Virus record (IMG/VR): IMGVR_UViG_3300028591_000212
Coordinates: 677 to 64,676 of that record
From: a virus
Lineage: Duplodnaviria; Caudoviricetes
DNA length: 64,000 nt
Strand: one strand, 5' to 3'
Under the pieces are notes generated by a model that saw only the letters and a list, made by a program, of their open reading frames with translations, was not told where the DNA came from and made no database searches. Below are positions 425 to 11,806 of this stretch, piece by piece; position 1 is the first letter of the stretch, and every line of letters begins with the position of its first letter. Both the position numbers and the translations under genes were made by a program.

Positions 425-499
425 TGGAGTGGGCGGGGGGAATTGAACCCCTATATCCGCCTTGGCAAGGCGGCGCACTGACCGTTGTACTACGCCCAC
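425..499 (-). tRNA. trnG: tRNA-Gly(GCC)
   Basis: Cloverleaf; anticodon arm CCGCC-TTGCCAA-GGCGG; U73; encoded CCA. Confidence 0.95.
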
Positions 500-504
500 A
501 TTTT

Positions 505-581
505 TGGCAGTCCGTACCGGATTCGAACCGGCGGTCTCTTCCGTGACAGGGAAGCATGTTAGGCCACTACACCAACGGACT
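505..581 (-). tRNA. trnD: tRNA-Asp(GTC)
   Basis: Loop CTGTCAC, TTCGAAT T-loop, G73, CCA. Confidence 0.95.
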
Positions 582-585
582 ATCT

Positions 586-671
586 TGGTGCTCGAAGAGG
601 GACTTGAACCCTCACGCTATCGCTAGCAGCGGATTTTAAGTCCGCTTTGTCTACCATTCCAACATTCGAGC
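586..671 (-). tRNA. trnL: tRNA-Leu(TAA)
   Basis: Loop CTTAAAA, long variable arm, CCA. Confidence 0.95.
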
Positions 672-674
672 ATA

Positions 675-753
675 TGGGGTGCCTGACAGGATTCGAACCT
701 GCGAATACCAGAGCCACAATCTGGCGTGATAGGCCAACTACACCACAGACACC
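675..753 (-). tRNA. trnH: tRNA-His(GTG)
   Basis: Loop TTGTGGC, G-1 and C73, CCA. Confidence 0.93.
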
Positions 754-809
754 ATATTTCTTTCTTACCTTACATAATAATTATAACATAAATTTTGATA
801 TTTTTCAAA

Positions 810-885
810 TGGTAGCTCCATTCAGACTTGAACTGAAATTACAGGGATATGAATCCTGTGTACTGACCGTTTATACGATGGAGCT
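810..885 (-). tRNA. tRNA-Met or Ile2 (CAT)
   Basis: Acceptor AGCTCCA/TGGAGCT, loop TTCATAT, CCA. Met vs Ile2 cannot be resolved by eye. Confidence 0.88.
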
Positions 886-887
886 AT

Positions 888-964
888 TGGTGCGGATTGA
901 CGGGCTCGAACCGCCGACCTATTGCTTGTAAGGCAATTGCTCATCCCAACTGAGCTAAATCCGC
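888..964 (-). tRNA. trnV: tRNA-Val(TAC)
   Basis: Loop CTTACAA, canonical arms, CCA. Confidence 0.95.
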
Positions 965-966
965 AT

Positions 967-1040
967 TGGCTGCCACTAAGAGAGTTGAACTTCTATCACT
1001 TGGTTCAGAGCCAAGTATCCTACCATTAGACGAAGTGGCA
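967..1040 (-). tRNA. trnQ: tRNA-Gln(CTG)
   Basis: Loop CTCTGAA, U1-A72, G73, CCA. Confidence 0.93.
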
Positions 1041-1044
1041 ATCT

Positions 1045-1120
1045 TGGTGGGAGCTCCCAGGGTCGAACTGGGTTCCTCGGATTTTCAGTCCGTTGCTATG
1101 ACCGCATCAGCTAAACTCCC
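1045..1120 (-). tRNA. trnF: tRNA-Phe(GAA)
   Basis: Loop CTGAAAA, CCA; A27.A43 mismatch. Confidence 0.93.
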
Positions 1121-1130
1121 ATTAAATTAA

Positions 1131-1155
1131 AAGCCTTCTCATAGAGAGAAGGCTT
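1131..1155 (-). terminator. probable intrinsic terminator
   Basis: AAGCCTTCTC/GAGAAGGCTT 10-bp stem followed by T run on the minus strand. Confidence 0.6.
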
Positions 1156-1411
1156 AACTTGTTAAAATTCTTGTTAAAATAAGTCTAACTCTCTATACTA
1201 CTGGGCACAATAAAAGTATCTTCACCATCAAAGTGTTTAGGGTTTAAAATCATCGCATTCACTGTAATTTCAAATCGTTTCATACTTTTATTCCTTTCCT
1301 ATCTTTACAATTATATTATAATATAAATTTAATATAATTGCAAGTAGAGAGACTAGCTCACTACTTATATTAAATTGTCATACCAAAGAACATAACAATT
1401 TTGTCCTTAAA

Positions 1412-1496
1412 TGGCGCCGTGCACAGGATTCGAACCTGCAAGCCCTTTCAGACCAACGGTTTTCAAGACCGCTCCCTCACCACCCGGACACACGGC
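1412..1496 (-). tRNA. trnS: tRNA-Ser(TGA)
   Basis: Loop CTTGAAA, variable arm, G73, CCA. It reads UCN and is not a UGA suppressor. Confidence 0.93.
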
Positions 1497-1499
1497 ATT

Positions 1500-1574
1500 T
1501 GGCACCCTCGGTAGGATTTGAACCTACATCTGACGACTTAGAAGGTCGTTGCTCTTCCGTTAAGCTACGAGGGT
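1500..1574 (-). tRNA. trnR: tRNA-Arg(TCT)
   Basis: Loop CTTCTAA, CCA. Confidence 0.95.
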
Positions 1575-1578
1575 ATAT

Positions 1579-1658
1579 TGGTTCGCCTTCGTGTTAATTC
1601 ACGAAAATTATTTCGCTGCCTTTGAGCAGTCTTAGCATAGTCAATTCTATGCGGCGAC
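1579..1658 (-). ncRNA. non-canonical tRNA-like cloverleaf RNA ending in CCA
   Basis: TCGCC/GGCGA acceptor plus ACCA end; hairpins GCATAG/CTATGC, CTGC/GCAG and TTCGTG/CACGAA; no TTC T-loop; sits in the tRNA array. Confidence 0.6.
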
Positions 1659-1760
1659 TATGATACCTTTCGATAATAACCTTAAATTCTGATTAGGACT
1701 GGCTATTTTAATGTATTACTGAATACGTTATTATCGCAGTTACCAAGTATTTGTCATTAA

Positions 1761-1843
1761 TGGTGGGCGAAGTGGGACTCGAACCCACACGCTTTAGCAC
1801 TAGTTTCTAAGACTAGCTTGTCTACCAGTTTCAACATTCGCCC
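1761..1843 (-). tRNA. trnL: tRNA-Leu(TAG)
   Basis: Loop CTTAGAA, variable arm, CCA. Confidence 0.95.
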
Positions 1844-1845
1844 AT

Positions 1846-1922
1846 TGGAGGTACAGATGGGATTCGAACCCACGAATAATGGTGTTGCAGACCACTCCCT
1901 TAAGCCGCTTGGGTACCGTACC
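1846..1922 (-). tRNA. trnC: tRNA-Cys(GCA)
   Basis: Loop CTGCAAC, U73, CCA. Confidence 0.93.
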
Positions 1923-1930
1923 ATATATCT

Positions 1931-2216
1931 AAAGCCTTCCTTAAATCACTTCATTTAGCTATTAAGGTTCCCCTACCATAATTTGGGTTTCACACAAACC
2001 CGCTGTCACCCTTTTCACCCTCTTGGAATAACTGCGAATACTGCACAATTAAGGAGTATCCCAACACTTGCTATTCGGAGTTGTAGTCTCTGTTGTCGCG
2101 GTATCTTTTTACTAGCATCTCAGCTAATGCGTGCGTCGAACTTCCTCTACTTTCGTAGCGATAGATTCTGCGTAGCCGACGTTCTGTTTTTCAATCTATC
2201 ATTTATCTAAGGCTTT
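1931..2216 (-). ncRNA. rnpB: RNase P RNA, bacterial type B, circularly permuted (opened in P18/P15.2, P1 replaced by a 6-nt linker)
   Basis: 5'-3' order: P18' AAAGCCTT, CR-IV AGATAAATGA, P2' GATAGATT, CR-V ACAGAA-CGTCGGCT-A, linker, P2 AATCTATC, P3 CTAC-GAAA-GTAG, CR-I GAGGAAGTTCGACG, P5 CACGC, P5.1 GCTGAGATGC, S-domain, P5' GTGTG, P15 CCC-AAATTATGGTA-GGG, P15.1 CCTTAA/TTAAGG, P18 AAGGCTTT. P4 pairs 8 bp with a bulged U. Confidence 0.88.
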
Positions 2217-2225
2217 ATTTTCTTT

Positions 2226-2299
2226 TGGTGTGAGATGCGAGATTTGAACTCGTACCGTCAGTTTGGAGGACTGAAATGCTACCATTACACTAATCCCAC
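2226..2299 (-). tRNA. tRNA-Gly(TCC)-like, atypical (C33, A73)
   Basis: TCAGT-CCTCCAA-ACTGA anticodon arm, TTCAAAT T-loop, CCA. Confidence 0.8.
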
Positions 2300-2335
2300 A
2301 TTATTATTATAACATATTTTTTATAATTTTCAAAT

Positions 2336-2412
2336 TGGTGTGCCTAGTGAGATTCGAACTCACACTCTATAAGGTTTGAGCTTATTGCCTCTACCAGTTG
2401 GGCTATAGGCAC
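2336..2412 (-). tRNA. trnL: tRNA-Leu(CAA) with a short (class I) variable loop
   Basis: ATAAG-CTCAAAC-CTTAT, 5-nt variable region, A73, CCA. Confidence 0.88.
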
Positions 2413-2422
2413 ATTTGATGAA

Positions 2423-2608
2423 TTAGTATCTAAATTCATCAACTACCGCAATAATAATACAAACAATTATCACTATTGCGGTTAGGAAAACAGGAATAGT
2501 TACTATCCACCAACTATTCAAGATATTAAGAACTTTTAAAAGAGCTAAAATAGTTGTAATAACTATTCCTAACAATATAACATCAGATAATTCTACTTCT
2601 TTGTTCAT
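2423..2608 (-). CDS. small two-helix membrane protein
   Basis: 61 aa, two hydrophobic stretches, GGGG-A SD. Confidence 0.7.
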   Translation of the reverse strand: MNKEVELSDVILLGIVITTILALLKVLNILNSWWIVTIPVFLTAIVIIVCIIIAVVDEFRY

Positions 2609-2617
2609 ATATTTCCC

Positions 2618-3121
2618 CTATTTTGAATATTTATCTGCTACAAAAGAGGCGGCATATGAATTAGGTTTAATTTCATAATCATAACCTACTGCTGTAACCC
2701 AACCTTCAAGTTCTTTAATTAAATCTTTTGTCGGGCCAGAAGTGCCTATATCGAGATGGATTGAAAGATTTAGTTTATCTAAAATATTTTCATCTTTATC
2801 TAAGAGATTTGATACAAGTAAATCGGCAGTTTCAATAGATAGTTGGGTTTCTGTATATAATTTTGTGCGTAGGTCTCTAATGCCAGCATGGTCAAATTTT
2901 TTATAGAAATAAATTCCTCCATTACCTACTCTATGCAAAACGATGGCTAAAACAAAATGAGTATCTTTATATGTCATTGAATCTGTACCAATAGATAATT
3001 GATATTCTCTATCAGGTATCTCGTCAACAAAGCTAATTATCCTATTTAATACTTCGTCTAATGTCATCCGCTCATGTTTTGCATTTTGAAACCTTGTATT
3101 TTTATCTATTCTGAACTCCAT
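2618..3121 (-). CDS. RNase H-like YkuK/DUF458 family protein
   Basis: Motifs IGTDS, YTETQLS, IHLDIG, KPNSYAAS..AD; start moved to ATG 3121 behind a GAGGA SD. Confidence 0.8.
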   Translation of the reverse strand: MEFRIDKNTRFQNAKHERMTLDEVLNRIISFVDEIPDREYQLSIGTDSMTYKDTHFVLAIVLHRVGNGGIYFYKKFDHAGIRDLRTKLYTETQLSIETADLLVSNLLDKDENILDKLNLSIHLDIGTSGPTKDLIKELEGWVTAVGYDYEIKPNSYAASFVADKYSK

Positions 3122-3132
3122 ATATAATCCTC

Positions 3133-3546
3133 TTATTTTTCTTCTGAATACCAATCCCAACTTAAATGAATGTCAAAGCTCTTGTCGTCGTCACCCCAAC
3201 GGAAAATGTATTCAGTTTCTACATCATCACCATTGATAGTATTTAGGTTAGAATCAGCTTTCATGGTTCTTAACAAACCTTCTGGGTCACTTGTTGCTTT
3301 ATTAATGTAATAATCGTATGTTGATTTGTTCTTGCATTTAATGAGATAATCGGCAGAACGAATACCAAAAGTACGAATATCAAATCCAACCCAGTAAGTT
3401 GTGCCCGGGCCTTCGTCAAACCCATGGACATTTGCCCACATTGCTGCTTTGTTAGGCCAAAAGACAGACTCATCATAAATATGATTAACTCAATGAGTTT
3501 GTTCGCTTGAACCCAATATTTTCTTTTTAATCCATTTTAAACACAT
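3133..3546 (-). CDS. hypothetical protein (TGA=Trp at 3490-3492)
   Basis: AAGGAG SD before ATG 3546; MCLKWIKKKILGSSEQTH[W]VNHIYDESVFWPNKAAMWANV... is in frame with ORF 3133..3441. Confidence 0.75.
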
Positions 3547-3563
3547 ATATTTATCTCCTTATT

Positions 3564-3638
3564 TGGTAGAAGTATCTGGACTCGAACCAGAATCTAACGG
3601 TTATAAGCCATTTGTTCTGACCTTTAAACTATACTTCT
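3564..3638 (-). tRNA. trnI: tRNA-Ile(TAT)
   Basis: AATGG-CTTATAA-CCGTT, A73, CCA. Confidence 0.9.
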
Positions 3639-3671
3639 AGACTAAAGGGGATTTAAAATCCCCTTATAATA

Positions 3672-4190
3672 CTATTTGCAGTTGCAATTACAGTCTTTTT
3701 CAAATACTACATCTGTTGTGTAGAAAATGCCAGGTGTATCACTGAAAATATCTCTTGCAATATCTTCATACAATGTTGATTTATAGCCATTAGGGTTGTC
3801 CATCTGGTCATTATAGAACTGAACCACCTTATTAGCGAAAACAACATAGTTGAATGAGAATGCTGTAGTATCGCCTGCTGAAGCAATATAAGACAATGCT
3901 GAGTTGCCATCAAAAGCATCTTTTAATAATTCAAGTTTTGATGGAACACCATTTGTATCATTATCAGGGACTACTTTAATTTTTACTGTCACGTTACCGA
4001 AAACTTTTTGAGTTGGTAATAATTGAGTTAAAGCGTCTGCTTTTCTAGCACCGTGTACATATAATGCGATTTCTAATCCGTCATTGTCATCGGTATAAAC
4101 TACTTTAACATCTGGGTCGTTTTCAAATAACATTTCATACTCATGTAAATAAGTCATTCAAGGCGTTGATAATTTAAGATTGTTTGTCAT
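3672..4190 (-). CDS. conserved phage hypothetical protein (TGA=Trp at 4158-4160)
   Basis: GGAG SD before ATG 4190; MTNNLKLSTP[W]MTYLHEYEMLF... is in frame with ORF 3672..4157. Confidence 0.8.
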
Positions 4191-4214
4191 TGATTTCTCC
4201 TCTATACTAAAAAA

Positions 4215-4303
4215 TGGCGCTGCCTCCGGGACTCGAACCCAGACACCGCTAATCGCGATGGATGCCTTAGCAGGGCATTGAGATACCATTACTCCAAGGC
4301 AGC
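4215..4303 (-). tRNA. trnS: tRNA-Ser(GCT)
   Basis: Loop CTGCTAA, long variable arm, G73, CCA. Confidence 0.95.
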
Positions 4304-4426
4304 GTTTCATCGCCCTTTTTACAACGATTTACCTTTCGTTCGCAGCCAGCAAGGGCCACGGACGCTAGGTGGCGAAGCAAGGATAATCGTGAACCAATAT
4401 TAAAACACCAAAAGGTGTAATAATCA

Positions 4427-4502
4427 TGGCTGGGGTAGGTGGATTCGAACCACCGAAATGCAGGAGTCAAAGTCCTGTGCCTTACCGCTTGGCTATGCCC
4501 CA
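4427..4502 (-). tRNA. trnQ: tRNA-Gln(TTG)
   Basis: CAGGA-CTTTGAC-TCCTG, U1-A72, CCA. Confidence 0.95.
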
Positions 4503-4510
4503 ATTTTGAC

Positions 4511-4631
4511 AAGACGCCCTTATTAAATGCTCCACCTATTGAGCTACACGTGTTTATAACACCTGATAGGACTCGAACCTATAACCTTTGGTTTTGCAGA
4601 CCATAAAGAATATTTTTGCTGAAAGCGTCTT
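4511..4631 (-). tRNA. circularly permuted tRNA-Cys(GCA) gene (3' half precedes 5' half, break at 27/28) inside an outer helix
   Basis: Order: TGGT-CTGCAAA-ACCAA (pos 28-43), AGGTT, ATAGG-TTCGAGT-CCTAT, CAGGTGT-T (66-73), ATAA, ACACGTG-TA-GCTC-AATAGGTG-GAGC-A-T (1-27). Flanked by AAGACGC.../...GCGTCTT. Confidence 0.75.
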
Positions 4632-4647
4632 TAATATTTTTACTTAA

Positions 4648-4734
4648 TGGTGGGCCGAGGTGGAGTTGCACCACCGATGTTTCTCATGTCACAGTTTTAC
4701 AGACTGTTGCCCTCGCTACTAGGCATACCGACCC
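4648..4734 (-). tRNA. trnY: tRNA-Tyr(GTA)
   Basis: ACAGT-CTGTAAA-ACTGT, variable arm, CCA; T-loop TGCAACT. Confidence 0.92.
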
Positions 4735-4738
4735 ATTT

Positions 4739-4813
4739 TGGCACCAGTGCAAGGACTCGAACCCTGACCCGCGGTTTTGGAGACCGTCATGCTACCATTA
4801 ACACCACACTGAT
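4739..4813 (-). tRNA. trnW: tRNA-Trp(CCA)
   Basis: ACGGT-CTCCAAA-ACCGC (A27.C43 mismatch), U11-A24, G73, CCA. Confidence 0.93.
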
Positions 4814-4817
4814 ACGT

Positions 4818-4946
4818 TTATTTTTTATTCATATAAAAATCAATCTCTTCTTGCTCTATTGCTCTGCTATCTTTGCTAGCCGCAACACAACAAGCGTAAA
4901 GTAATACCATAATAAATGCTAATAATATAATTCCTAATACTACCAT
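4818..4946 (-). CDS. small membrane protein (42 aa)
   Basis: MVVLGIILLAFIMVLLYACCVAASKD..., directly behind a sigma70-type promoter and AAGG SD. Confidence 0.5.
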   Translation of the reverse strand: MVVLGIILLAFIMVLLYACCVAASKDSRAIEQEEIDFYMNKK

Positions 4947-5003
4947 TTTCTTTTCACCTTACATATATATTATAACATTTATTTTTTATTTTTTCAAATA
5001 AAA

Positions 5004-9076: not shown

Positions 9077-9808
9077 CTAGTCTTCCTCCTCTTCTAACAC
9101 TAAAACATTTACTTTACCACTATGAGCGGTACAAGCGTCAATCGCAATAATACCGTCATCTTCAAAAATACCAAAGTTGGCATCTTCCCCAAACTCACTA
9201 CCTTGTTTGTGTAGGTAGTGGTGTCCCCAAGAAGTATGCCAGTGTCCGCAAACAATGGTTTTTGCATCACGATGACCATTTTTCCATCTAGCCATACCGT
9301 TAAACCATCTTGCTTCTTCCCACTCATACTTGTCAGCATTGCCAGGAACACGCCAATCTACTACATTTGGTATCCAGCCATGTACGAAAACATAATTTTT
9401 AGTTTCATAGTAATTGCGGCACTCTTTAAAGTATTCCATTAAATCTTGATTTTTGCTCAAAGAACGAGTGGCTATATCAACAGCAAACCATTCTTCAGAA
9501 GGTGATAAACGCTTTATAGTATCAATAGTACCATTTGAAACATCGTAACTAAAATACCCACGTTTTCCTCTAACTAATTCTTCAAGTAAATCTTCGTGAT
9601 TACCACGAATAAAAATTCTTCTATCTTCTGGTAGATTCATTACATATTCTAAGCACTCTGCTGGCTTAGTTCCTCTATCAAAAAGGTCGCCACAAAGTAT
9701 GAAAAAATGCTCTGGGTTTGATTTTTGATACCCAGCTTTATCTAAAGCTAGAAGCATTTCGTCATAGAATGAGTGAACATCACTTACTATAAAATATTTT
9801 CTTTTCAT
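9077..9808 (-). CDS. calcineurin-like metallophosphoesterase
   Basis: SDVH, GDLFDRG, GNHE, VHG, GHWH motifs. Confidence 0.9.
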   Translation of the reverse strand: MKRKYFIVSDVHSFYDEMLLALDKAGYQKSNPEHFFILCGDLFDRGTKPAECLEYVMNLPEDRRIFIRGNHEDLLEELVRGKRGYFSYDVSNGTIDTIKRLSPSEEWFAVDIATRSLSKNQDLMEYFKECRNYYETKNYVFVHGWIPNVVDWRVPGNADKYEWEEARWFNGMARWKNGHRDAKTIVCGHWHTSWGHHYLHKQGSEFGEDANFGIFEDDGIIAIDACTAHSGKVNVLVLEEEED

Positions 9809-9867
9809 ACATATATATTATAACATATTTTTTTATAAAATAAAAGAACTAGACTTTTTATCTAGTT

Positions 9868-10995
9868 CTAAGCCATCATACTAATTAGATTAGCATAAGG
9901 TAAAAATTCGTTTTCTGGTTTGATTATGAATTGAATTTGTTTTACGGAAGTCATTACATCTTCTTCTCTAATTGGAGTTACATCGCCATAATCATCTTCA
10001 TATAACTTATCAACTTTATCCAAGAAGAAGAACTTGCCGTTCTTATCATATTTAATATTGGCTATTGAGAAACCAAGACAGCATTCGCCATTATATAAGT
10101 TATTTCCACTATCCAAGAAAAGGCGGGATTGTGGGCGATACCAGTCTATTGTGTAATTATCAACGGTATCCTTTTTGCCATTTTCATAATAAACAACGGC
10201 TTTAAATTTGCTAGGCTGACTAAACTCAATATTCAAATCGTTTAATGAAGAGCCAATATCATAGCCTTTATTTAATTCAATCGCTAAAGCACGCAGATTA
10301 TCATAAGTAAAAGGATAGAAAGTATCTAGACTTAGAATCTGCTGAATCAAATTTTCTTTATTGTCAACTGTGAGGTGGTCATTTAGATATTCCTCAACAG
10401 AATCGGCATCTGGTTTTGTTAATCTAAAATGGTAATAAAATCTGCCCGGGCGGTTCAGCATATAATCATTTAGCATATGAGTTTTATTACAAGTTATAAT
10501 ATATAACTTATTACCGCCATCAACCCCATCAAGCAAAGATAAGAAATCTGCTTGAGGGTCAAACCCAGTTTCTCTATCTTCAGCAAATTTCTTTTCAAAT
10601 TCATCAAAGATAACTACAACTCTCTGGTCAATTGACGCAAGAAAATCTGTTAGACCGGGGGTGTATTCTGAACACGTAATAACGGGAATGTTATTTTCTA
10701 TTGCCTTAATACAAATAAGACGCATTAAAATTGATTTTCCCATTCCACTTTCGCCAGATATAATAACGCCGAAATTACGATTGCTGGTTGAATATCCTTC
10801 TAAAACTTTATCGGCTTTTTCAGTTAAGCCGCCATAGATTTTAGTTTCCTTTACCTCTAACGGCGCACGCATAACTAAAGAATATCCAGTCATTTTATTG
10901 AAGTCAATATCATAATACTGTGCTGGCAGGTTATCATACGTATTAAGTACGTTTGAATAAATTATAAACCTATCTCCCGAATTAACTATCCGCAT
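9868..10995 (-). CDS. AAA+ ATPase
   Basis: Walker A GESGMGKS, Walker B VVIFDE, sensor TCN, LNRPGRF arginine finger. Confidence 0.9.
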   Translation of the reverse strand: MRIVNSGDRFIIYSNVLNTYDNLPAQYYDIDFNKMTGYSLVMRAPLEVKETKIYGGLTEKADKVLEGYSTSNRNFGVIISGESGMGKSILMRLICIKAIENNIPVITCSEYTPGLTDFLASIDQRVVVIFDEFEKKFAEDRETGFDPQADFLSLLDGVDGGNKLYIITCNKTHMLNDYMLNRPGRFYYHFRLTKPDADSVEEYLNDHLTVDNKENLIQQILSLDTFYPFTYDNLRALAIELNKGYDIGSSLNDLNIEFSQPSKFKAVVYYENGKKDTVDNYTIDWYRPQSRLFLDSGNNLYNGECCLGFSIANIKYDKNGKFFFLDKVDKLYEDDYGDVTPIREEDVMTSVKQIQFIIKPENEFLPYANLISMMA

Positions 10996-11806
10996 TGTTA
11001 AGCTCCTCTTTCATATACGTTCTCATAATTTTATTTAATACATCATCTAAAAATTTATCTGTCTCTTGGTTTGGTTTAAGTGACTCCGCAGGAGCGAAGC
11101 TCTCATATTCTTTTTTTAAACTAACTGCTCTATCTAAATATTCTTGAGCAATTTGTTCTGCTACTTCTGGAGTATAAGAAATTTGACCTCTTTTTACTTT
11201 ATGAAGATAATCCACACTAAAAGGAATTAAACAATCTTCATAAGGCACACCTTTTGAGTACATTTTCATGAACTCATAAACCCTAATCAAATGAGATAAT
11301 TGCTTTGGGTCATATCCAAATTTATCAAGCCAATATTTTCTGCTAGGATATTCATGTAATAAAGCATGGAATTTTTCCGAGCACATGCCGCACATAGTCT
11401 TCATAGCTTGAAGAGGATTGTAGTGGGCAATTTCTTCTTTTCTGCTGATTAATAAATCCCAATATTGCTGATAAATTGGATTAACAATAACATACTTTGT
11501 GAAAAGAGTTTCAACAAAGTTGATGTTTTGTTTTCTATATTGGTTAAACATTAGACGGATATCTTTAATGTCGATATGCTCATCGTTAGCACGCACATGC
11601 GTGTAAGATTTTGCTTCGTGATTAAAGATAATATCATCTAAGCTTGGCAAAACAATGGCTTTGCTGTCGATATCACTATCTTTATCCGCCATATTATAAT
11701 TTTGTGAGCCTTGTAAACATAATGCAAAAACTTGCTTTTCTGGAATAATAGTAAGCAATTCTTGGTAATGTTCTGCTAATCTTTTTTCAATTTCTTTCTT
11801 TCTCAT
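10982..11806 (-). CDS. Pol-beta superfamily nucleotidyltransferase (RlaP/NrdC.11-like)
   Basis: QGSQNY...DSDID catalytic motif; K.LSHLIR helical C-domain. Confidence 0.8.
   Translation of the reverse strand: MRKKEIEKRLAEHYQELLTIIPEKQVFALCLQGSQNYNMADKDSDIDSKAIVLPSLDDIIFNHEAKSYTHVRANDEHIDIKDIRLMFNQYRKQNINFVETLFTKYVIVNPIYQQYWDLLISRKEEIAHYNPLQAMKTMCGMCSEKFHALLHEYPSRKYWLDKFGYDPKQLSHLIRVYEFMKMYSKGVPYEDCLIPFSVDYLHKVKRGQISYTPEVAEQIAQEYLDRAVSLKKEYESFAPAESLKPNQETDKFLDDVLNKIMRTYMKEELNNADS

Follow-up and report, generated by a model that had tools for sequence, protein, structure and literature searches.

A permuted tRNA-Cys look-alike in a phage tRNA cluster is probably a Y-RNA-like small RNA

Y RNAs and the Ro60 protein constitute a classic ribonucleoprotein, the roles of which in bacteria and phages are poorly understood. 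YrlA, a Y RNA of tRNA-like build, is a ligand of Ro60/Rsr proteins from bacteria and mycobacteriophages (Chen et al., 2014, PMC4201824). In Mycobacterium smegmatis, where YrlA has a 7-bp acceptor, cleavage of the RNA by RNase P and addition of CCA both occur in vivo, and the two halves remain bound to Ro60 (PMC4201824). The known phage Ro60 systems comprise TROVE proteins together with CGAA-type Y RNAs (PMC12135203; PMC7824862). Here, an element is described that lies at positions 4511-4631 of a 64,000-nucleotide stretch of phage DNA (the window; IMG/VR record IMGVR_UViG_3300028591_000212) and that is a real small RNA gene, holding all parts of a tRNA-Cys in rotated order. Since the same layout is found with compensatory changes in at least 12 other phage lineages, this architecture is far beyond chance. 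A first-pass annotation had taken the element for a phage counterpart of the permuted tRNA genes of algae and archaea, with a circular intermediate and a re-joined 27/28 junction. Instead, it is probably a stable Y-RNA-like small RNA, composed of a handle that would bind a DUF2828 protein and a rotated tRNA-Cys look-alike that is carried as cargo and is not ligated.

Read on the minus strand from 4631 to 4510, the element has tRNA positions 28-73 ahead of ATAA and positions 1-27, all of it enclosed by the 7-bp helix AAGACGC/GCGTCTT, as seen both by reading the sequence and by script. The first-pass annotation had correctly placed the 3' half before the 5' half, with only ATAA between U73 and position 1, had recognized that the outer helix encloses both, and had proposed that joining U27 to U28 completes the anticodon stem, which is borne out by the ability of U27 to pair with A43. 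The anticodon hairpin itself reads UGGU/CUGCAAA/ACCA and is followed by A43. When the halves are swapped in silico (4553-4527 joined to 4603-4558), the resulting 73 nt are called by ARAGORN as tRNA-Cys(GCA), as the annotation had led one to expect; in the native order, neither ARAGORN nor Rfam at the gathering threshold returns a call. The nucleotides for the tertiary contacts of a tRNA are complete (U8, A14, A15:U48, G18G19, G53:C61, T54-T55-C56), and the acceptor stem forms six of its seven pairs, with a G5.G68 mismatch (4549/4563) that had gone unmentioned. Two negative features had also been noted rightly: the element is alone in not encoding CCA, which all 19 ordinary tRNAs of the window do, and no canonical 3-4-3 bulge-helix-bulge (BHB) is visible, none being formed by the 12-nt leader and 9-nt trailer linkers on reading or in the fold. 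In the minimum free energy fold the outer helix grows to 10 bp through pairing of the spacer, and the anticodon hairpin is missing (-30.1 kcal/mol, versus -25.1 kcal/mol for the tRNA-like fold). Minimum free energy folds that miss the anticodon hairpin are common for tRNAs, so that this does not decide the matter.

The helix and the motif next to it recur in many phages. Related loci were retrieved via the RNase H-like gene of the tRNA cluster and scanned by script for a T arm, an acceptor hairpin and a D arm in this order, and the same rotated tRNA body was found in the same frame in seven loci (L003-L008 and L010, with L005-L008 representing one lineage). The frame consists of a 7-bp closing helix, 3 nt, the motif CAGCAA, the cargo, the complementary strand and a G; the helix sequences vary with pairing kept (GACGC/GCGTC, GGCAC/GTGCC, GACAC/GTGTC, GACCC/GGGTC). 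Many uncultured phages have such handles on the strand that codes for their tRNAs, and the cargo in L003-L010 comprises permuted tRNA bodies, short AT-rich stretches, anticodon-like hairpins, ordinary tRNAs (e.g. L004 7633-7732, Rfam tRNA, 64.7 bits) and larger RNAs, with four handle cassettes in tandem at L006 6476-6860. The search of phage genomes that the first-pass annotation had suggested does reveal a family, some members of which hold whole permuted tRNAs and others hairpins or normal tRNAs. In a test independent of pairing, WAGNCNN-NNN-CAGCAA sites were collected from 84 phage loci (853 kb) and a perfect 7-bp partner was sought up to 300 nt downstream. Unique sites numbered 102 on the coding strand versus 3 on the opposite strand, and a partner was present for 90 of the 102, compared with 2 and 5 for control clamps that were reversed or shuffled. 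The 152 unique handles yield the consensus (A/T)AG(A/G)CNC-NNA-CAGCAA ... GNG(T/C)CTT-G, which the handle of the window matches at every conserved position except the base before CAGCAA; this third base of the spacer, U in the window, is A in 83% of the family. The family was defined by a 7-bp closing helix with the 5' strand starting WAG and the 3' strand ending CUU or CUA and then G, by CAGCAA 2-4 nt (mostly 3) after the 5' strand, by a position in a phage tRNA or small-RNA cluster, on its coding strand, and by a DUF2828 (Ro60-fold) gene elsewhere in the genome; the element agrees in its helix, its CAGCAA spacing and its position in a tRNA cluster. The family was found neither in Rfam 15 nor in the literature searched.

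Two other accounts of the handle were set aside. A reading at the DNA level, as inverted repeats of a mobile cassette, is ruled out by the strand bias of 102 versus 3 and by the tolerated G-U pairs, and the conserved part was judged too small for a self-cleaving ribozyme. The exact handle of the window (AAGACGC-TTT-CAGCAA...GCGTCTT) recurs in a 174-kb DUF2828 phage (L109 9314-9426; L106) around a cargo of another kind, which resembles tRNA-Gly(UCC) in normal order and has a weak acceptor stem; an identical handle around different cargo suggests that handles and cargos recombine. In L006, a full-length ROOL RNA (845-1455; Rfam RF03087, 302 bits) directly follows a CAGCAA-handle cassette (578-704) among tRNA genes.

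All handle-bearing relatives tested (G002-G004 and G006-G010) carry DUF2828, as recognized by PF11443 or a profile of it; both DUF2828 and handles are missing from G001, a contig 93% complete that contains L002. The permuted cassette of L005-L009 immediately precedes the start codon of DUF2828, and among 75 further DUF2828 loci there are 50 in which at least one handle on the same strand is found no more than 5 kb away; near DUF2828 in these loci, 127 handles are on the same strand versus 4 on the opposite one. An ortholog of the element was found in G009 (168.7 kb, 88% complete, portal 57% identical to that of the window) by scanning for the window's own handle sequence. It is located on the minus strand at L115 7723-7842, 5.7 kb upstream of DUF2828 and on the same strand, and shares with the window element the handle, the leader part AUUCUUUA and the trailer. 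Its body has a T arm, an acceptor hairpin of wholly different sequence with six of seven pairs, and a D arm, and is without an anticodon hairpin. The fold predicted for the DUF2828 protein of G009 (mean predicted local distance difference test score 84, predicted template modelling score 0.83) is Ro60-like: its 12 best PDB matches are all Ro60/TROVE, over the full length (E 4e-8 to 1e-5, template modelling score 0.42-0.59). This likeness comes from fold comparison only, as the DUF2828 profile matched nothing in the PDB by sequence, and TROVE PF05731 has no match in the contig of the window or in five relatives.

The handle could also be a mere signal for RNA processing or stability, read perhaps by a nuclease of phage or host (the PF04308 protein, for instance), with the link to DUF2828 being incidental. 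Indeed, some handles lie in 5' untranslated regions just ahead of ribosome-binding sites and others in polycistronic tRNA transcripts, and the tRNA clusters of the window and of L002-L010 each contain a PF04308 gene. However, this is unlikely, since G001 has a PF04308 gene, the RNase H-like product of which is the closest to that of the window (71% identical), but neither handle nor DUF2828, and since handles cluster beside DUF2828, on its strand, in many unrelated phages. As an obligatory partner of the handle, the PF04308 protein is ruled out by its presence in the handle-free G001. The gene itself ("RNase H-like," YkuK-type) is located at 2618-3160 (minus strand) inside the tRNA cluster of the window, and in all nine of the related loci L002-L010 it likewise lies in the tRNA cluster.

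Among known RNAs, YrlA is the closest to the element. In both, the chain ends form a closing stem, inside which T arm, loop-sealed acceptor and D arm follow in rotated order with the tertiary nucleotides of a tRNA, and in both the gene family accompanies a ring-shaped Ro60-fold protein with a von Willebrand factor A (vWA) domain. Under permissive thresholds, the Rfam YrlA model RF02553 aligns with 4522-4590, covering the T arm, acceptor hairpin and D arm (32.4 bits, E 2e-5). By contrast, the handle of the element is an AAG-stem followed by NNN and CAGCAA ... CUU-G rather than GNCGAA, the partner family of its relatives is DUF2828/DUF7788 (PF11443/PF25043) rather than TROVE PF05731, and an entire anticodon hairpin is added, the loop of which is canonical for Cys. 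The handle, moreover, also carries cargo that is not tRNA, and no TROVE gene lies within ~4 kb on the same strand. The element is thus not a member of YrlA, as judged by score, GNCGAA motif and TROVE neighbor.

To assess whether the helices are maintained, 14 non-redundant permuted members were aligned and the clamp, anticodon hairpin, T, acceptor and D stems were counted. Cells are paired in 94.4% of cases, versus 64.9% in shuffles, and both partners have changed in 21 of the 27 pairs. Covariation scores 0.746, compared with 0.205 for shuffles and at most 0.148 for slid partners; the closing helix (helix 1) is 99% paired, with changes on both sides in six of seven pairs, and the T-arm helix (helix 3) is 100% paired. 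It is hardly credible, therefore, that the element is a functionless, decaying remnant of a tandem tRNA-Cys duplication, which the first-pass annotation had not favored either. A tandem duplication with two deletions would give exactly this order, and the anticodon arm is identical to that of the phage tRNA-Cys except for one loop base, but the helices are all intact and covary across permuted members, the architecture is kept with compensatory changes in many lineages, the handle fits the 152-member consensus, and the remaining body is only ~61% identical to that tRNA-Cys.

The anticodon part varies from member to member: it is GCA in the window, UGU in L003, UUU in L004, UUG in L010 and GUA in the L025 and L035 groups, is replaced by a GAAA tetraloop in L005 and by a 5-nt loop in L006-L008, and is missing altogether in L059 and L076. 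The chain leaves the anticodon stem at 27/28 in the window, at 28/29 in L003 and L004, and at 29/30 in L010, and in each of these the 5' strand of the stem is split exactly between both ends. In L006-L008, L025-L029 and the L035 group this strand occurs twice, one copy adjoining the loop and the other lying in the tail past A26; both are able to pair with 39-43, which suggests two alternative folds or a strand-swap switch. N73-CCA is encoded inside the sealed acceptor loop in ~4 of 12 permuted lineages.

Permuted tRNA genes are reportedly found in Cyanidioschyzon merolae, green algae and Thermofilum pendens, as told by Soma and co-workers in 2007, Maruyama and co-workers in 2010 and Chan and co-workers in 2011. 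Maturation from such genes depends on a BHB, on the splicing endonuclease and on a ligase, and proceeds via a circular intermediate. The element resembles them in that the 3' half comes first, the spacer between 73 and 1 is short, leader and trailer pair, and the cloverleaf is complete after the swap. By contrast, neither BHB nor endonuclease, ligase or circle is seen for the element, bacteria to our knowledge do not have that splicing endonuclease, and the missing BHB indicates that this is not a permuted tRNA gene of the algal or archaeal kind. A true permuted tRNA-Cys gene of any kind, the transcript of which would be cut beside the clamp, joined at 27/28, relieved of ATAA by RNase P and a 3' nuclease, supplied with CCA and used in decoding, is highly unlikely. 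Such a gene would account for the good cloverleaf of the swapped sequence with its U73 and GCA, and for the exact partition of the anticodon stem between the ends in the window, L003, L004 and L010; furthermore, genes for a metallophosphoesterase, an AAA ATPase and a nucleotidyltransferase weakly matching RlaP lie 4.5-7 kb upstream on the same strand. However, the handle is conserved in sequence and is also wrapped around ordinary tRNAs, bare hairpins and unstructured stretches, including cargo that cannot turn into a tRNA, and thus is not a junction signal specific for permuted tRNAs. The G009 ortholog and other members, such as L005 with its GAAA tetraloop, are without an anticodon loop, an ordinary tRNA-Cys(GCA) is already present (Table 1), making a second decoding tRNA-Cys unnecessary, and the handle accompanies a Ro60-fold protein, as Y RNAs do. 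Moreover, a stem and motif built alike are kept in the mature Class I RNAs of Dictyostelium (PMC7919456). No RNA ligase, Ro60-like protein or class II CCA-adding enzyme was detected in Pfam and PHROGs scans of the larger open reading frames of the window.

Two RNA libraries from different studies contain contigs that span 4499-4649 without differences and in the order of the genome; 5007-5600 is not covered. These contigs contain no back-joint at 27/28, with rare forms and RNA ends being invisible in assembled contigs, and show only that the colinear form is present in those libraries. The calcineurin-like metallophosphoesterase, AAA ATPase (phrog_2376) and nucleotidyltransferase (phrog_388, weakly matching the RNA-repair protein RlaP) genes are adjacent at 9077-11806 (minus strand), upstream of the tRNA cluster, and may constitute an RNA end-healing or repair set, in which no ligase is seen.

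Class I RNAs of dictyostelid social amoebae were reportedly described by Aspegren in 2004. These RNAs start with AAG, have a 6-bp terminal stem with compensatory changes and an adjacent 11-nt motif, and end in CUGU (PMC7919456; Kjellin et al., 2021). The stem and motif are part of the mature RNA in Dictyostelium (PMC7919456), and the published search pattern is GTTGRCCTTACAGCAA...GTCAACTG (PMC5054030). The phage handles likewise have an AAG start, an end-joining stem of 6-7 bp with variable sequence and kept pairing, a variable interior, and an unpaired motif ending in CAGCAA directly 3' of the 5' stem strand, like the 11-nt box (PMC5054030; PMC7919456); several of them read AAGTCGC-TTACAGCAA...GCGACTTG. 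By contrast, Class I RNAs are eukaryotic, 42-65 nt long, end in CUGU and carry no tRNA-like cargo, whereas the element has 121 nt and a CUUG end, and they have been reported as unique to Dictyostelia. The likeness, which emerges from the comparison of published motifs only, is a lead toward a possible homology. Two-piece tmRNA (transfer-messenger RNA) from permuted ssrA genes was reportedly found by Keiler, Shapiro and Williams in 2000. The element is similar in being a permuted tRNA-like gene of the bacterial world that could give two base-paired pieces once the spacer between CCA and the 5' end is removed; it differs in that it lacks a tag reading frame, G3:U70 and pseudoknots, and has only 121 nt. 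One-piece tmRNA genes are present in the tRNA clusters of relatives (L002 6831-7185, L004 2276-2715, L010 1727-2078), the tag peptides of L002 and L010 ending ...APSYQV(T/A)(F/L)AC, and none was found in the window. A full-text literature search brought up no paper that deals with CAGCAA RNAs of phages, with phage permuted tRNA genes or with DUF2828 in connection with RNA.

On the Y-RNA-like interpretation, the handle (7-bp helix AAG...CUU-G, 3 nt, unpaired CAGCAA) would be the binding site of the Ro60-fold DUF2828 protein, by analogy to the terminal stem of Y RNAs, which binds Ro60. The cargo would be presented as a complete tRNA-Cys look-alike with the acceptor sealed by U73-AUAA and the chain ends leaving the body at 27/28 into the handle. 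The element may be co-transcribed with tRNA-Trp, tRNA-Tyr and tRNA-Gln, and its ends would then be released by RNase P and 3' processing of the tRNA neighbors. Given the 7-bp acceptor, RNase P may in addition cut the sealed acceptor at position 1, and CCA addition may follow, as for YrlA of M. smegmatis. The product would have the shape of a tRNA and consist of two pieces, kept in contact through the acceptor stem, the handle and the split anticodon stem, and neither circularization nor ligation at 27/28 would be needed.

Could such an unligated RNA be active in translation? The acceptor would be opened by RNase P and completed with CCA, cysteinyl-tRNA synthetase would charge it, and the ribosome would tolerate the handle. 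The seven-pair acceptor, U73 and GCA are compatible with this, as are the N73-CCA encoded in the sealed loop of several lineages and the RNase P-cut, CCA-tailed YrlA of M. smegmatis (PMC4201824). Nevertheless, it is very unlikely: a helix of 7-10 bp and ~20 nt of linkers would project from the anticodon stem at 27/28, the acceptor contains the G5.G68 mismatch, relatives without an anticodon loop are unable to decode, and the function would be redundant with the ordinary tRNA-Cys. We know of no tRNA with such a helix and linkers leaving the anticodon stem at this position. The Y-like RNA would most likely act as a bait or adaptor that shows tRNA-directed enzymes the form of a tRNA-Cys and its anticodon loop while the phage infects its host. 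Such a role fits with the anticodon part being the variable, exchangeable piece, with the ordinary tRNAs of the same anticodons already present in the phages, and with the bare anticodon-like loops carried by some handles. It points in the same direction as an option raised in the first-pass annotation, an end-protected decoy. A further variant, in which the RNA is opened by RNase P in its sealed acceptor loop, CCA-tailed and charged with Cys while on the Ro60-like ring, and hence would be a tethered two-piece aminoacyl-tRNA look-alike, is rather unlikely. In that variant, the look-alike would lure or sense anticodon nucleases of the host and further defenses aimed at tRNAs, each handle RNA could show an anticodon of its own, and the common AAG-stem-CAGCAA handle would also make the Class I RNAs of social amoebae Y-like partners of DUF2828 proteins.

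Several observations weigh against a Y-RNA-like element. The canonical 7-nt loop, U73 and the exactly split stem, found also in L003, L004 and L010, are what a working tRNA needs. The YrlA score of 32.4 is far under the gathering score of 69, with model positions 23-88 of 114 aligned, and the GNCGAA(N)G Ro60-binding motif of YrlA was not seen on reading 4604-4631. We infer binding between handle and DUF2828 solely from their co-occurrence. The members used for covariation were chosen by a scan that demands pairing, so that the 94.4% of paired cells is partly circular, whereas the diversity of pair types per position is not. The RNA-library contigs may stem from contaminating DNA, and RNA ends are not visible in them. 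Finally, there is no DUF2828 or TROVE gene on the 64.7-kb contig of the window; this contig has a completeness of only 36% and stops 5.2 kb downstream of the element. As the corresponding distance in G009 is 5.7 kb, a partner gene could sit just past the end; the last 1.3 kb of the contig hold small open reading frames only. The gene order around the element is not common to the window and G009, so that this guess is one from distance only.

The window represents nearly the entire IMG/VR phage contig, for which no close relative is found among GenBank phages and which public sequencing runs place in sheep gut samples; one of these runs, X1, contains 90% of the words sampled from it. The element is located within a minus-strand tRNA cluster (425-4813), between tRNA-Tyr and tRNA-Gln and on the same strand as both (Table 1). 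The promoter-like site upstream has 11 of 12 consensus matches and an extended -10, and the terminator-like hairpin may mark the end of a four-gene RNA unit. A ~55-nt repeat with a near-consensus sigma-70 promoter and extended -10 (756-810, 2282-2336 and 4945-4999, minus strand) precedes each of three tRNA sub-clusters, so that the tRNA region seems divided into several transcription units. Searches with a neighboring 161-aa open reading frame as query found no related loci, a 20-mer search of metagenome contigs gave no match, and an exact 18-mer of the anticodon region had one match in viral contigs (L011), which lies inside a coding region and was dismissed as chance. A suppressor tRNA(CUA) (anticodon CTA) is present in several related phages (L006-L009, L101 and L109), and the portal gene of G009 (G009:C1:80184-81680) contains six in-frame TAG codons, which indicates that these phages read TAG as a sense codon; the window is without tRNA(CUA), and its long open reading frames are open under table 11.

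Table 1. Coordinates of the element's parts and of nearby features in the window
Feature	Position	Strand	Remark
Handle helix, 5' strand AAGACGC	4625..4631	-	Family consensus (A/T)AG(A/G)CNC; from reading and covariation
Spacer UUU, 3 nt, from helix to motif	4622..4624	-	May lengthen the helix by pairing with AGG 4518-4520
CAGCAA, defining motif of the handle family	4616..4621	-	Predicted to be largely unpaired; 3 nt past the helix
Leader linker AAAUAUUCUUUA, 12 nt	4604..4615	-	Part AUUCUUUA common to the G009 ortholog
Anticodon hairpin: U28-U31, loop CUGCAAA (GCA 4595-4597), A39-A43	4588..4603	-	U28-U31 4603-4600, loop 4599-4593, A39-A43 4592-4588
Variable loop AGGUU	4583..4587	-	U48 can form the Levitt pair with A15
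T arm AUAGG-UUCGAGU-CCUAU, perfect	4566..4582	-	Inside the Rfam YrlA alignment; helix 3, 100% paired in the family
Acceptor 3' strand CAGGUGU (4565-4559), U73 (4558), sealing loop AUAA (4557-4554)	4554..4565	-	CCA not encoded
Predicted RNase P site	between 4554 and 4553	-	Cleavage suggested by M. smegmatis YrlA (PMC4201824)
Acceptor 5' strand ACACGUG (4553-4547), U8 A9 (4546-4545)	4545..4553	-	
D arm GCUC-AAUAGGUG-GAGC (4544-4529), A26 (4528), U27 (4527)	4527..4544	-	U27 can pair with A43
Trailer linker UUAAUAAGG, 9 nt	4518..4526	-	Similar in the G009 ortholog
Handle helix, 3' strand GCGUCUU (4517-4511), and unpaired G (4510)	4510..4517	-	G conserved in 87% of the family
Sigma-70-like promoter (TTGAAA, 17 nt, TG-TATAAT)	4969..4997	-	Upstream of tRNA-Trp, tRNA-Tyr, the element and tRNA-Gln; consensus match only
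Terminator-like hairpin and U run	4405..4418	-	Just past tRNA-Gln; consensus match only
Ordinary tRNA-Cys(GCA), CCA encoded	1846..1922	-	

Independently of its role, the element demonstrates that a natural circular permutation of a tRNA exists in bacterial viruses without the splicing machinery of archaea and eukaryotes, and that such permuted elements escape tRNA finders. The evidence points to a second, widespread branch of Y RNA/Ro60 particles with another protein family (DUF2828), another handle and modular cargo, which extends from bare anticodon-like loops to whole tRNA bodies, the member in the window being of the most tRNA-like kind. The likeness of the handle to the Class I RNAs of Dictyostelium offers a lead on an RNA class that has stayed unexplained for 20 years, and the element provides a concrete, testable case of how phages might display tRNA shapes in the conflict over tRNAs.

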